A DNA stretch of 33,255 nt from a virus (Duplodnaviria > Heunggongvirae > Uroviricota > Caudoviricetes): IMG/VR virus record IMGVR_UViG_2667527666_000008. The stretch is one strand, 5' to 3'. Shown here in pieces: positions 27,082 to 33,255 of the stretch. Below the pieces are notes generated by a model. That model was not told the origin of the DNA. It ran no database searches and saw only the letters and a program-made list of their open reading frames with translations. How positions within the stretch are numbered: the first letter of the stretch is position 1; every line of letters starts with the position of its first letter. Both the position numbers and the translations under genes were made by a program.

Positions 27082-27645
27082 GTGCTGACAACGCAAAAAC
27101 GAAAATTTGCGCTGGCGCTCATGTCCGGGAAAAACAAAACAGCGTCAGCCATTGCCGCCGGTTATTCGGCGAAGACCGCCAGGGTTAAAGGCTCGCAGCT
27201 GGCAAAAGATCCGGAGGTGCTCGCGTTTATAGCCCGTAAACAGTGCGAAACGGTGGAGGTGGATGAGGTTCCTGTTTACCGGCAGAAAAAATCAGAGCAG
27301 GAGGATAAACCCCGTCGCCGTGAGGCGGCTGCAATACCACAGCCGGACGAAAACAATCCGGAGATGCCACCGCCCGCGGTGATGTCTCATGGTATTGAAT
27401 ATATGGAGGATGGTCTTCCCGATCCGGTGAAAGCTATGGGGCAGATCCTGGTGGAAAACCTCAGCATTGATCCGAAACTGGCACTGGATGCGGCCTGGCG
27501 ACTGGCGCAGTTCACACACCATAAAAAAGGCGATGCCGGTAAAAAATCGGCAAAAGGTGATGCCGCGAAAAAAGCGGCTAACCGTTTTGCGGTGCCACCG
27601 CCACCCCGACTGGTGGTGAATAACGATAATGAGGGCAACGGATGA
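27082..27645 (+). CDS. Terminase small subunit
   Basis: GTG start with GGAGGAGG ribosome-binding site; N-terminal HTH-like region (KRKFALALMSGKNKTASAIAAGYSAKTARVKGSQL) typical of small terminase subunits; overlaps the large-subunit start. Confidence 0.8.
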   Translation: MLTTQKRKFALALMSGKNKTASAIAAGYSAKTARVKGSQLAKDPEVLAFIARKQCETVEVDEVPVYRQKKSEQEDKPRRREAAAIPQPDENNPEMPPPAVMSHGIEYMEDGLPDPVKAMGQILVENLSIDPKLALDAAWRLAQFTHHKKGDAGKKSAKGDAAKKAANRFAVPPPPRLVVNNDNEGNG

Positions 27646-29303
27646 TACCTGTATGGAGCACAGCCTGCCCGGACTGGGCAGAGCGCCTGAAAAAGGGGCT
27701 GTCGATTATTCCGGATCCGATTTATCCGGACGAGGCCGCACATGCCCTGGCGATTTTTAAACAACTGCGGATTGTGGATGCACCTGGTAGCCCGACGTTC
27801 GGGGAGTCCTGTGCACCGTGGGTGTTTGACCTGGTGGCGGCCCTGTTTGGCTCCTACGATGCGCAGACCGGTGTACGCCATATCAAGGAAGTTTTTATCC
27901 TTATCCCCAAGAAAAACTCGAAGTCCACGCTGGCTGCGGGGATCATGATGACTGCACTGTTACTGAACTGGCGGCAGGCGGCGGGTTACACGATTCTGGC
28001 CCCGACTGTGGAGGTGGCGGCCAACGCCTTCAACCCTGCCCGGGATATGGTACGACGTGACGATGATCTGGATGACCTCTGCCAGGTACAGACCCATATC
28101 CGGACCATCACCCACAGGGTGACAGACACCACCCTGAAGGTGGTGGCAGCCGATCCGAATACGGTGTCCGGTATCAAGTCCGTGGGTACGCTGATTGATG
28201 AGTTGTGGCTGTTTGGCAAGCAGTGCAAGGCGGAGGACATGTTACGTGAAGCCATAGGCGGCCTTGCCTCCCGCCCGGAAGGGTTTGTGGTGTATACGAC
28301 CACCCAGTCGAATGAACCGCCTGCCGGGGTGTTCAGACAGAAACTGCAGTACGCCCGGGATGTGCGCGACGGCAAAATTCATGATCCGCACTTTCTGCCG
28401 GTGATATTTGAACACCCTCCTGAAATGGTGGAAAGCGGGGCTCACCTGCTGATGGAAAACCTCGCCATGGTCAATCCGAATCTCGGCTATTCAGTGGATG
28501 AGGCCTTTCTGTACCGGGAGTACCGTAAAGCCCGGGAAGCCGGTGAAGAGACATTCCGGGGGTTCATGTCAAAACACGCCAATGTGGAAATTGGCCTTGC
28601 CCTGCGCTCTGACCGCTGGGCGGGGGCTGATTTCTGGGAAGAGCAGGGCCGTTGTATCAGCCTGGACGATATCCTGCGTCGTGCTGATGTGGTGACGGTG
28701 GGGATTGACGGCGGAGGGCTGGATGATCTGCTGGGGATGTATGTGATTGGGCGTGACCGGGAGACCCGCGAATGGCTGGGCTGGGGCCATGCCTGGGCGC
28801 ATGAAACCGCGGTGGTCCGACGGAAGAGCGAGGCGTCCCGGTTTCAGGATCTTGTTGCCTGTGGAGATATGACCATTGTCCGGCGTGTCGGGGATGACAC
28901 GGCGGAAGTGGCGGAATATGTGCGTCGCATTCATGAGGCTGAGTTACTGGACCATATCGGTATTGACCCGTCAGGGGTGGGGCAGATTCTGGATTCACTG
29001 GCGGAAGCCGGGATCCCCGACGGAATTGTGGTGGGGATAAGCCAGGGCTGGAAACTGGGCGGGGCCATTAAAACCACCGAGCGCAAGCTGGCTGAAGGGG
29101 TACTGGTGCATGGTGACCAGCCCCTGATGGCCTGGTGTGTCGGCAATGCCCGGGTGGAGCCTAAAGGTAACGCCATTCTTATCACCAAACAGGCCAGTGG
29201 ACGGGGAAAAATTGACCCGCTGATGGCGCTGTTCAATGCGGTCTCCCTGATGTCCCTTAACCCGGAACCGAAAAAGAAAGAATATGCGGTTTTTTTCATA
29301 TAA
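27642..29303 (+). CDS. Terminase large subunit
   Basis: 553 aa; N-terminal ATPase region with a P-loop-like 'PKKNSKST' and a C-terminal nuclease-like region; position after the small subunit. Confidence 0.85.
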   Translation: MIPVWSTACPDWAERLKKGLSIIPDPIYPDEAAHALAIFKQLRIVDAPGSPTFGESCAPWVFDLVAALFGSYDAQTGVRHIKEVFILIPKKNSKSTLAAGIMMTALLLNWRQAAGYTILAPTVEVAANAFNPARDMVRRDDDLDDLCQVQTHIRTITHRVTDTTLKVVAADPNTVSGIKSVGTLIDELWLFGKQCKAEDMLREAIGGLASRPEGFVVYTTTQSNEPPAGVFRQKLQYARDVRDGKIHDPHFLPVIFEHPPEMVESGAHLLMENLAMVNPNLGYSVDEAFLYREYRKAREAGEETFRGFMSKHANVEIGLALRSDRWAGADFWEEQGRCISLDDILRRADVVTVGIDGGGLDDLLGMYVIGRDRETREWLGWGHAWAHETAVVRRKSEASRFQDLVACGDMTIVRRVGDDTAEVAEYVRRIHEAELLDHIGIDPSGVGQILDSLAEAGIPDGIVVGISQGWKLGGAIKTTERKLAEGVLVHGDQPLMAWCVGNARVEPKGNAILITKQASGRGKIDPLMALFNAVSLMSLNPEPKKKEYAVFFI

Positions 29304-29327
29304 CCCTGTTCACACTGTAACCATCAC

Positions 29328-29350
29328 GAACCGCTCCGGCGGTTTTTTTA
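29328..29350 (+). terminator. Hairpin plus T-run between terminase and capsid genes (attenuator-like)
   Basis: AACCGC-tcc-GGCGGTT followed by TTTTTTATTTT. Confidence 0.4.
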
Positions 29351-31304: not shown

Positions 31305-31348
31305 GTCTGATAAGGAGGACGGGAGGCGTGCGCCTCCCGTAACAGGTT

Positions 31349-31570
31349 ATGGCAAAGATCCGATATCTGCAGGGCACGCATGATGCCCGGGCCGGGGATA
31401 TCCGTGATGTGGCACAGCCGTGTGCGGAGGTGCTGGTTCGCCTGGGAAAGGCGGAGTACATCACGGTGCGACGTCCGGCAGGTCAGAAAAAGAAACGTGA
31501 TGCGGAGCATGGCGAATGTGGAACCTTTTACGGCGAACCCGAAAAAACCAGAAATCAGGACGTGACGTAA
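31349..31570 (+). CDS. Hypothetical small protein (73 aa)
   Basis: ORF between capsid and portal genes; preceded by the perfect hairpin GGGAGGCG-tg-CGCCTCCC (31321..31338). Confidence 0.3.
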   Translation: MAKIRYLQGTHDARAGDIRDVAQPCAEVLVRLGKAEYITVRRPAGQKKKRDAEHGECGTFYGEPEKTRNQDVT

Positions 31571-33255
31571 GAGAGGCGGGCTGGACCAGCCTGTTTCAGG
31601 CGGTGGCTGAGCCCTTTTCCGGCGCCTGGCAGCAGGGCGTGAAAGCCGATCCTGAAGCCGTCCTCTCCTTTCATGCGGTGTTTGCATGTATTTCGCTGAT
31701 ATCCCAGGATATCGCCAAAATGCGGCTGCGTCTTATGCAGACGGATGCGCATGGGATACGCAGGGAAACGCGCCGGGGGGATATTGCCCGCCTCTGTCGT
31801 CGTCCCAACGCCCAGCAGAACCGCATCCAGTTTTTTGAACTGTGGCTGAACGCCAAACTGCGTCACGGCAATACGGTGGTGCTGAAAATCCGTAATGCCC
31901 GGGGGCAGATCAAAGAACTGCGTATTCTGGACTGGAGCCGGGTTGAACCTCTGGTGGCGGATGACGGCGAGGTGTTCTACCGCATCACGCCGGACCGGAA
32001 CTGCGGGATCACGGAGGCGGTGACGGTGCCTGCCCGGGAAGTGATCCACGACCGGTTTAACTGTTTTTTTCATCCGCTTATAGGATTGCCGCCGGTGTAT
32101 GCCGCCGGGCTGGCGGCCACGCAGGGGCATCATATTCAGGAAAATTCGACGTCTTTTTTCAGAAATGGTGGCAGGCCGTCCGGGGTGATTGAGATCCCCG
32201 GCAGTATTACGGAAGAAAATGCGAAAAAACTGAAGAGCAACTGGGACAGCGGGTATACAGGCGAAAATGCGGGGAAAACGGCCATTCTGAGCAACGGGGC
32301 AAAATACAACCCCACGACGTTTTCACCTGTGGATGCGCAGACGGTGGAACAACTGAAGATGACCGCTGAAATTGTCTGTTCGGTGTTCCGTGTCCCGGCC
32401 TACAAGATTGGCGTGGGACAACCGCCTTCCAGTGACAACGTGGAGGCGCTGGAGCAGCAGTATTATTCCCAGTGCCTGCAGACGCTGATTGAGTCCATTG
32501 AACTGTTACTGGATGAGGCGCTGGAAACGGGGGAAAACGAGAGTACAGAATTTGATGTCACCACGCTGCTGAGAATGGACAGTGAGCGGCGCATGAAAAC
32601 GCTGGGGGATGCGGTGAAAAATACGCTTCTCACGCCCAATGAGGCCCGTAAACGGGAGAACCTGCCGCCCCTGGCCGGCGGTGATGCACTGTATCTTCAG
32701 CAGCAGAACTACAGTCTGGAGGCGCTGTCCCGTCGTGATGCCCGTGAGGATCCGTTCTCGTCTGCCGGGAAAACAGTTTCATCACAGCTGCCTGACGGCG
32801 CATCTGACGGTAATAAGGCAATCAGTGAAACAGAGCATGATGCGGTGAAAGCGATGTTCAGGGGGGATACTGAGAAAATGACGGAACGGGAACTGTCCAT
32901 TATTCGTGCACTGGGAGAAGAATTCTCCACAGTGCTGGCGGATTTACAGCGCACATTTGAGGGGAAGATGGCCTCGCAGGCACAAGCGTTTGAAGAGAAA
33001 CTGACTTCCCTGTCGGCGGTATTACAGAAGCATGTGACGGTGGATGAGGTGCGTCCGGTTCTGCAGGCGATGGTGGATGACGCTGTGGGGGCCATTCCGG
33101 TACCGCGTGATGGTCGTGATTATGATCCGGATGTACTGCAGCAGGCGGTGAATGATGCGGTCGCAAATATTCCGCAGCCGGCGGACGGTAAAAGTCTCAC
33201 CCCGGATGATGTGCGTCCGATGCTTGAACAGATGGTGAAGGAGGCGGTAAGCCAT
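31516..33255 (+). CDS. Portal protein (partial; continues past the window end)
   Basis: Portal-like core 'FFRNGGRPSGVIEIPGSITEENAKKLKSNWDSGYTGENAGKTAILSNGAKYNPTTFSPVDAQTVEQLKMTAEIVCSVFRVPAYKIGVG'; no stop codon before the window end; start uncertain (ATG 31516; alternatives 31639 or 31720). Confidence 0.7.
   Translation, partial: MWNLLRRTRKNQKSGRDVREAGWTSLFQAVAEPFSGAWQQGVKADPEAVLSFHAVFACISLISQDIAKMRLRLMQTDAHGIRRETRRGDIARLCRRPNAQQNRIQFFELWLNAKLRHGNTVVLKIRNARGQIKELRILDWSRVEPLVADDGEVFYRITPDRNCGITEAVTVPAREVIHDRFNCFFHPLIGLPPVYAAGLAATQGHHIQENSTSFFRNGGRPSGVIEIPGSITEENAKKLKSNWDSGYTGENAGKTAILSNGAKYNPTTFSPVDAQTVEQLKMTAEIVCSVFRVPAYKIGVGQPPSSDNVEALEQQYYSQCLQTLIESIELLLDEALETGENESTEFDVTTLLRMDSERRMKTLGDAVKNTLLTPNEARKRENLPPLAGGDALYLQQQNYSLEALSRRDAREDPFSSAGKTVSSQLPDGASDGNKAISETEHDAVKAMFRGDTEKMTERELSIIRALGEEFSTVLADLQRTFEGKMASQAQAFEEKLTSLSAVLQKHVTVDEVRPVLQAMVDDAVGAIPVPRDGRDYDPDVLQQAVNDAVANIPQPADGKSLTPDDVRPMLEQMVKEAVSH

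Follow-up and report, generated by a model that had tools for sequence, protein, structure and literature searches.

The DNA analyzed here is a stretch of 33,255 nucleotides from a tailed virus (Caudoviricetes), IMG/VR record IMGVR_UViG_2667527666_000008, referred to as a whole as the window, and this work deals with its block of DNA-packaging and head genes, which occupies positions 26426–33255 and lies entirely on the plus strand. The encoded proteins were scanned with Pfam, NCBIfam and PHROG profiles, and bit scores were judged against the curated cutoffs. The block begins with an HNH endonuclease gene (26426–26791; PF01844, E 2.7e-7, 31.1 bits against a cutoff of 21.4), followed by the genes for the small (TerS, 27082–27645; PF03592, E 1.3e-8; phrog_641, E 4.5e-68) and large terminase subunits (TerL, 27642–29303; PF03354 and PF20441, both above their cutoffs; phrog_9, E 1e-145), the latter with ATPase and nuclease domains. 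Then come a single open reading frame (ORF) of 645 aa (29367–31304), in which a protease, a linker, a delta-like coiled coil and an HK97-fold capsid domain are joined, a conserved small ORF, and a portal-containing ORF of the HK97 family, which starts at ATG 31516 and runs off the window at 33255. The HNH gene lies directly upstream of the terminase genes, has an equivalent position in most relatives, and is separated from TerS by a 290-nt gap that presumably holds the cos site, by analogy with the HNH/cos/TerS layout of HK97. In HK97 itself the order is gp74 (HNH), cos, gp1 (TerS), gp2 (TerL), gp3 (portal), gp4 (protease) and gp5 (capsid).

An earlier, sequence-only reading of this DNA had proposed the order terminase, protease-capsid fusion, portal. 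This was borne out, since Pfam, NCBIfam and PHROG profiles passed for all three assignments. The last ORF is a portal: TIGR01537 matched aa 45–388 over model positions 2–343 of 343 (E 1.9e-104, 349.5 bits, cutoff 112.05), PF04860 matched aa 53–381 (E 2.5e-81, 273.8 bits, cutoff 39.1), and the HK97 portal 8cez matched at E 4e-20. The portal protein proper corresponds to aa 1–454 (31516–32877); its solved relatives have 393–431 aa. From residue 455 on, the ORF is a different gene, called X here, which stands alone in most relatives. The first 126 aa of X, beginning MTERELSIIRALGEEF, are encoded at 32878–33255 and end at the window edge inside the first copy of a 54-aa repeat. Profile matches also assigned the expected capsid fold to the 645-aa ORF. 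PF05065 (Phage_capsid) matched aa 386–635 (52.7 bits, cutoff 24.2), TIGR01554 (major_cap_HK97) matched aa 204–584 over model positions 3–355, with the N-terminal delta region included (78.3 bits, cutoff 27.5), phrog_10 (major head protein) spanned aa 183–642, and the solved capsid protein 9d9w matched at E 0.0019. The protease domain, of the S78/HK97 type, takes up approximately aa 1–160 (29367–29846); PF04586 (Peptidase_S78) exceeded its cutoff of 21 over aa 48–152 with 34.7 bits, and TIGR01543 reached 46.4 bits, its cutoff being 59. His55 (in WQH) and Ser110 (in GLSVGF), which we take to be the catalytic residues by analogy with HK97 gp4, were at least 96% conserved among 28 relatives.

This block is widespread. 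Of 5426 complete E. coli genomes, 1258 contained prophages 99–99.9% identical to it over 6.2 kb, the median being four copies per genome, and 94 phage records matched it at 90% identity or more, the best of them being 96–99% identical. These were mostly Stx1a, Stx2a and Stx2c converting phages, such as YYZ-2008, 2851, 1717 and JLK-2012. An E. coli locus 99.9% identical to the window (L001) allowed the comparison to be carried beyond the window end: 3' of its portal ORF follow genes for a head-tail adaptor, a head closure protein, an HK97-gp10-like protein, a tail completion protein (the tail terminator of the YYZ-2008 record), a major tail protein, the tape measure and gpJ.

To survey the gene order, one genome per species was scanned, and 29 loci with a relative of the protease-capsid fusion protein were recovered. 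They came from gammaproteobacteria (Enterobacter, Kluyvera, Citrobacter, Pantoea, Erwinia, Rouxiella, Marinobacter and Hydrocarboniphaga), the betaproteobacterium Snodgrassella, and the alphaproteobacteria Chelativorans, Mesorhizobium, Hyphomicrobiales and Caulobacteraceae. The portal gene lay 3' of the capsid gene in 27 of the 29, the remaining two being one truncated contig and one with a different arrangement, and a full-length fusion at 32–77% identity was present in 27 loci from the three proteobacterial classes. The records of Pseudomonas phages PAJU2 and IME307, Salmonella FSL SP-016, Rhizobium RHph_X2_26 and Moraxella Mcat9 are annotated with this order as well, and it was seen in 35 further viral contigs, retrieved with divergent X proteins, wherever their upstream reach sufficed. 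Such recurrence means that the order is no effect of chance or assembly. In Snodgrassella and Moraxella Mcat9 the protease and capsid are separate genes, yet the order TerL, protease, capsid, portal is kept, so that gene order does not depend on the fusion; in Burkholderia phage records, too, protease and capsid are annotated as separate genes, about 2 kb into the genome. The order HNH, TerS, TerL, protease and capsid (fused or not), small ORF, portal, X, head-tail adaptor is fixed in the lineage. Judged from these comparisons, the position of the portal after the capsid is an inherited lineage trait and no local rearrangement.

The E. coli members of this lineage are long-tailed lambdoid and Stx prophages of the 2851, YYZ-2008 and BP-4795 type, and other members are FSL SP-016 and PAJU2. 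The closest relatives, namely 2851 and YYZ-2008 (Pankowvirus), BP-4795 and JLK-2012 (Marienburgvirus), WGPS2 (Sawaravirus) and the Sakai prophages Sp6, Sp9, Sp10 and Sp12, are 95–99.9% identical to the window in DNA over the whole 6.2 kb and have the same gene content and order, and records of this type annotate the 645-aa product as "major head protein/prohead protease". In PAJU2 (ORF001–ORF008) and vB_PaS_IME307 the genes for TerS, TerL, the protease-capsid fusion, small ORFs, portal, an X homologue and an adaptor follow one another in the order of this lineage. The record of PAJU2 ORF003 carries the note "prohead protease fused capsid protein"; this protein is 48% identical to that of the window. 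PAJU2 differs in its host, in having two small ORFs between capsid and portal, and in its separate X (ORF007), which is 29% identical. The unusual character implied by the sequence-only reading was therefore not upheld, as the order is conserved, very common and already annotated in Stx phages, PAJU2 and the O157 Sp prophages. The gene order and the protease-capsid fusion are thus known and ordinary, and the sequence is present in hundreds of annotated genomes. The head-gene organization of Sakai prophages Sp6, Sp9, Sp10 and Sp12 had been described as "slightly different" by Asadulghani et al. (2009; PMC2669165), who observed particles with elongated heads of 44 × 95 nm. Elongated heads have also been reported for an Stx2c phage and for PhiESI, a relative of FSL SP-016.

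The block shares with HK97 the TIGR01537 portal, a protease assigned to the S78 type by PF04586, a TIGR01554 capsid protein whose N-terminus is a delta domain, the lack of a separate scaffold, and the HNH gene beside the terminase genes. Unlike HK97, it has the portal after the capsid, protease and capsid in one ORF, a small ORF between capsid and portal, and the extra gene X. The same succession of protease, scaffold-like segment and HK97-fold capsid within one ORF occurs in the "major capsid and protease fusion protein" of actinophages (SEA-PHAGES; clusters AN, AU, AW and EE), in NF045541 and in gp5 of Pseudomonas phage MD8. These are different sequence families, MD8 having a ClpP-like protease and a Mu-like capsid protein. 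The 645-aa protein scored 54 bits with NF045541 (prohead protease/major capsid protein fusion protein), far below the cutoff of 525, so it shares the architecture and belongs to another sequence family. Phages with fusions of these other types generally keep the portal before the capsid gene. The protease-scaffold fusions of the CBASS escape paper are another case than the 645-aa ORF, and the papers on AH14a and Ab31 deal with head modules other than this one. The block is best explained as the packaging and head-assembly genes of a widespread lineage of HK97-like temperate siphophages, and the complete explanation, comprising this order, a nested capsid start, the portal-X fusion and the proposed place of X, is held with a confidence of about 0.75.

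The 645-aa ORF would be translated from GTG 29367, which is preceded by AGGAGG at 29356–29361, and it appears to contain a second start. A variable linker joins the protease to the capsid part, which opens with a delta-like helical segment beginning MNIGEQIKSFENKRAAL. Exactly at this boundary, an in-frame ATG (29943–29945, Met193) lies 10 nt 3' of an AAGGA motif (29928–29932). A Shine-Dalgarno-like motif with ATG or GTG within two alignment columns of this site was present in 16 of 17 diverse relatives, and the Met193 column was the top-scoring Shine-Dalgarno and start column across the whole ORF. In Snodgrassella, where the genes are separate, capsid similarity sets in at the very first residue of the segment headed by Met193, and the fusion gene of PAJU2 also has an internal GGAGG–ATG. 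This conservation suggests that the internal start yields a separately translated capsid protein of 453 aa (29943–31304), made up of a delta or scaffold-like helix region followed by the HK97 fold. The ORF would then give two products, the full fusion from GTG 29367 and the capsid protein alone from Met193. The fusion would have its S78 protease attached to the N-terminus of the delta domain, which faces inward, and would bring the enzyme along into the procapsid. Such an arrangement would resemble lambda C/Nu3 and herpesvirus UL26/UL26.5, in which a long protease product and a shorter in-frame product share the C-terminal part. It would differ from lambda C/Nu3 in that the shared part is here a capsid protein with a delta domain, with no free scaffold.

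It could also be that there is no nested start, that every capsid subunit is a protease fusion, as is presumed for the actinophage "major capsid and protease fusion" proteins, and that AAGGA–ATG is a relic of a once separate capsid gene. A relic is plausible because relatives with separate protease and capsid genes exist, and the Shine-Dalgarno sequence of GTG 29367 (AGGAGG) is stronger than that of the internal site. The case for internal initiation is further weakened by other conserved Met/Val columns in the capsid domain, which also score as Shine-Dalgarno plus start in 11–12 of the 17 sequences, so that the test, when loosely applied, is not very specific. The internal motif and start nevertheless persist across E. 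coli, Pseudomonas, Marinobacter and alphaproteobacteria (43–54% protein identity), and the linker residues around them change (HKEKTIM, KKGNISM, PQEGNDM, RTEGKM), which argues for selection on the nucleotides. The relic is considered rather unlikely, and use of the Met193 start is preferred.

The sequence-only reading had also suspected an extended or fused portal C-terminus, and this proved to be correct, the extension being gene X joined to the portal by one additional nucleotide. The portal ORF of the window is not a stand-alone portal of some 390–480 aa: in L001 the fused allele measures 807 aa, in YYZ-2008 861 aa, and the coding sequence in 2851, which was sequenced as an isolated phage, has 859 aa. 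The stand-alone portal, by comparison, has 454 aa in the closest two-gene relatives and 447–479 aa across relatives. In Enterobacter, Kluyvera, Atlantibacter, Rouxiella, Erwinia, Pantoea, Marinobacter and alphaproteobacterial loci, as well as in FSL SP-016 and PAJU2, this portal ends ...AMLRGLLTK* and a separate X starts MNERELSLI..., the two genes overlapping by ATGA. When the window was aligned with BP-4795, WGPS2, JLK-2012 and YYZ-2008, the only relevant difference between fused and split forms was a tract of six (G6) versus five (G5) guanines, 17 nt before the ancestral stop. In BP-4795, WGPS2 and JLK-2012 the G5 allele (ATGTTCAGGGGGATACTGAGAAAATGA) reads MFRGILRK* and leaves portal and X as two genes. 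In the window, YYZ-2008 and 2851 the G6 allele (ATGTTCAGGGGGGATACTGAGAAAATGACG, given here from window position 32854) reads MFRGDTEK-MTERELS..., so that the portal stop is lost and the frame continues into X, the ancestral ATG of which is kept. The fusion in the window is therefore a one-G insertion (G5 to G6) at 32861–32866. Programmed frameshifting was considered and rejected, as inspection by eye found no canonical X XXY YYZ slippery heptamer at the G tract, and the fusion is a genomic indel.

The frequency of both alleles was determined with exact 41-mers in the complete E. coli genomes. The G6 41-mer was present at 1369 places in 782 genomes and the G5 41-mer at 913 places in 487. Among the retrieved loci (33 with G5 and 21 with G6), each allele was found with either flanking haplotype (GAG or GCG), a pattern suggesting that the change recurred or was exchanged by recombination. 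A separate in-frame fusion of portal and X, of 1237–1243 aa and with a repeat region much longer than that of E. coli, was found in Candidatus Pantoea communis (locus L016, 9184–12915) and in the family member P0220, and the portal of Moraxella Mcat9 (479 aa) has a C-terminal motif of its own resembling a carbohydrate-binding module (CBM).

Another reading takes the fused ORFs for decay or artefact, either pseudogenes that arose by frameshift in a defective prophage or sequencing errors in a homopolymer. The portal-X join is indeed a 1-nt change within a G homopolymer, database records of WGPS4 and WGPS8 label one or the other form a pseudogene, and lambdoid prophages of E. coli are often defective (PMC2669165). 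Nevertheless, the protease-capsid fusion is intact and conserved in three proteobacterial classes, the G6 allele occurs on two flanking haplotypes with the X part intact and in the same length classes as in G5 copies, and its presence in 782 complete genomes and in the phage records of YYZ-2008 and 2851 makes a systematic sequencing error unlikely. Decay or artefact is regarded as quite improbable. The fused allele might still be a tolerated lesion instead of a functional form, and a table in Asadulghani et al. (2009), in which several Sakai prophages of this type have their portal scored as defective, the allele meant not being discernible from it, also counts against the preferred explanation.

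Gene X, where present, lies directly 3' of the portal of this module, and its product is acidic (pI ~4.5, net charge −18 to −23). In an AlphaFold model the N-terminus is predicted to form helices and coiled coils, with one long helix at pLDDT 93, and the C-terminus a beta domain of about 145 aa at pLDDT 97–98. The part between them consists of helix-plus-loop units of about 27 aa, variable in number (27/54-aa repeats), with helices of 13–17 aa and loops of 12 aa carrying a PxPxDG-type motif. The repeated motifs that the sequence-only reading had pointed out near the window end, IPVPRDG (33094–33114) and IPQPADG (33169–33189), are the start of this tandem repeat, which is complete in L001 (162-bp period, 2.3 copies, 93% matches). 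The lengths of X in E. coli copies step by 54 aa (299, 353, 407, 461 and 569 aa; 353 aa in L001), and the repeat copy number varies among the records of Stx and lambdoid prophages. A function of X as a head-length ruler was rejected: X matches measured 1209–1371 nt in 44-kb PPompW prophages and 1047–1209 nt in 54–56-kb Stx1a phages, so that its length does not follow genome length and such a function is unlikely. The 162-bp repeat, present in several copies within genomes, probably breaks short-read assemblies. Since the end of the window (33103–33255) falls inside it, and many NCBI entries named "phage portal protein, partial" stop at the ends of contigs of 1.6–9 kb, these breaks would explain why the window and such records end there.

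X is a large family. At E ≤ 1e-3 it comprises 5630 clusters (50% identity), nearly all of them stand-alone proteins, and the N-terminal part of a portal was found in only one of 154 cluster sequences examined (P0220, of the Pantoea type). Stand-alone examples include those of FSL SP-016, PAJU2, BP-4795 (ORF59) and many genomes. A homology search with the X region retrieved only near-identical partial E. coli portals and no distant homologues, and the family was found by a search of a representative library; looking up its cluster members returned no informative names. The stand-alone proteins showed neither a PF04860 match nor a portal fold in the profile scan. They are nevertheless named "portal protein" in phrog_1289 and in many GenBank and RefSeq records (for example, coding sequences in L034, L035, L037 and L038), a name apparently inherited from the fused E. 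coli ORF. Conservation of the C-terminal domain extends from E. coli as far as alphaproteobacterial hosts (44–58% identity over the last 60–90 aa). Against PF02839 (CBM_5_12, cutoff 26.2) the E. coli protein scored 19–20.7 bits, and the family members P0125 and P0130 exceeded the cutoff with 29.8 and 32.2 bits. The modeled domain is a small beta fold that can be superposed on solved chitin-binding CBM5/12 domains, and the best fold matches of X were chitin-binding domains, phage tail fibers and receptor-binding proteins. A weak match of this domain to phrog_5073 ("tail fiber protein") was also obtained.

As to where X acts, a tentative best guess, held at a little under even odds, is that it docks on the C-terminal crown of the portal inside the head. 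X would be attached to the crown, or in the G6 allele be covalently continuous with it, as a 12-copy axial extension resembling the portal barrel of P22 or a portal-anchored core. The C-terminus of the portal presumably lies inside the capsid, as in solved portals. Three kinds of covalent link between portal and X (the E. coli G6 allele, the 1243-aa Pantoea ORF and the CBM-like motif of the Mcat9 portal), together with the translational coupling of the two genes through their ATGA overlap and the acidity of X, point to a 1:1 association with the crown inside the head. In P22 the portal has a long helical extension from the crown into the head, and T4 fibritin, encoded beside the neck genes, is a coiled coil built of segments and ending in a small C-terminal domain. 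X may resemble both in overall build, by analogy and from the AlphaFold model, although structure and profile searches gave no sequence or fold match to either, and its PxPxDG repeats and CBM5/12-like domain set it apart from them.

Some of the same features fit X as an external fiber, a neck whisker, collar or head fiber like T4 fibritin or the phi29 head fibers, the CBM5/12-like tip of which would bind a glycan. The predicted build of coiled coils, 54-aa-step tandem repeats and a compact beta-rich C-terminal domain is fiber-like, and X is acidic, as many fibers are. Extracellular carbohydrate binders are where CBM5/12 modules typically occur, and together with the fiber-type matches already described this fold favors an external fiber, for which the fused allele would be unsuited. 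X is also absent from L019/L020, from L027/L028 and from the EVP transcript (PMC8156552); it is thus accessory and dispensable in some relatives. If X were such a fiber, the frameshift that gives the G6 fusion would be tolerated or slightly harmful; translation from the retained ATG would supply free X, and the prohead protease would trim off the copy attached to the portal. With the portal C-terminus inside the capsid, however, fusions to an external fiber should be selected against, yet G6 is the commoner allele in complete E. coli genomes and is present in 2851, and independent portal-X fusions exist in Pantoea and Moraxella. The conservation of the C-terminal domain as far as alphaproteobacterial hosts is likewise unexpected for a binder of host glycans. 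An external fiber is accordingly held to be rather unlikely, internal docking on the portal crown is preferred, and the remaining likelihood falls to a role of X other than these two.

Several other features of the window were recorded. Between terL and the protease-capsid gene, just 5' of AGGAGG, the sequence scan found a terminator-like GC-rich hairpin with a T-run (29328–29355, plus strand). A hairpin with a different stem sequence stands at the matching position in relatives from Enterobacterales, PAJU2, Hydrocarboniphaga and Marinobacter. It has a tetraloop, the equivalent site being found in L004–L016, L019, L030, L032 and L033, and the stems vary in a compensatory manner (aaccgc/gcggtt, acccgc/gcgggt, agcccg/cgggct, accccgc/gcggggt) with shape and position kept. 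This hairpin could be an attenuator, or an element that stabilizes or processes the mRNA of the late operon. The small ORF between the capsid and portal genes (31349–31570, plus strand; 73 aa; phrog_829, E 3.7e-39) had no match in the Pfam scan and overlaps the portal start by 55 nt; homologues of about 55 aa occupy the matching position in most relatives, the E. coli version being longer. Within the lysine-rich C-terminal part of the TerS gene, at 27525–27578, there is a 27-bp tandem repeat with two copies and 85% matches (KKGDAGKKSAKGDAAKKA). Among the X-containing contigs, L121 (IMGVR_UViG_3300020045_001914) has portal, X and adaptor in two inverted head-to-head copies at 1716–8204, probably a palindromic artefact of metagenome assembly. 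Outside the head block, a cluster of tRNA-Met, tRNA-Arg(tcg) and tRNA-Arg(tct) was located at 19796–20045, upstream of esterase and lysis genes. In YYZ-2008 the equivalent slot is filled by the stx genes, and the near-identical locus L001 has no annotated stx gene. Directly upstream of the lysozyme gene there is a 268-aa ORF (23245–24051), where L001 has DUF1378, DUF826, holin and YdfR genes.

This analysis adds three points to what is known of the module: the nested start is conserved, the portal-X fusion stems from a single G and is frequent, and X is recognized as a separate, mislabeled family; these are refinements and no new kind of system. None of the three was found in the searchable literature, which likewise returned no paper describing X. 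The block occurs in about a quarter of the complete E. coli genomes, and thousands of database entries give stand-alone X the name "portal protein", a misannotation that has been carried over. In a more speculative version, which is considered improbable, X would represent a new class of portal-crown accessory protein in an HK97-like module for which prolate heads have been reported in E. coli and Salmonella. Twelve acidic coiled-coil chains with variable repeats and CBM5/12-like caps would lie along the head axis, as a core that sets the elongated shape or aids DNA exit, and the G5/G6 tract would switch between non-covalent and covalent attachment. The nested start and the G5/G6 polymorphism offer simple handles on protease dosage and portal accessories in medically relevant phages with elongated heads, and X, as a large family of the virion module, deserves a structural look.

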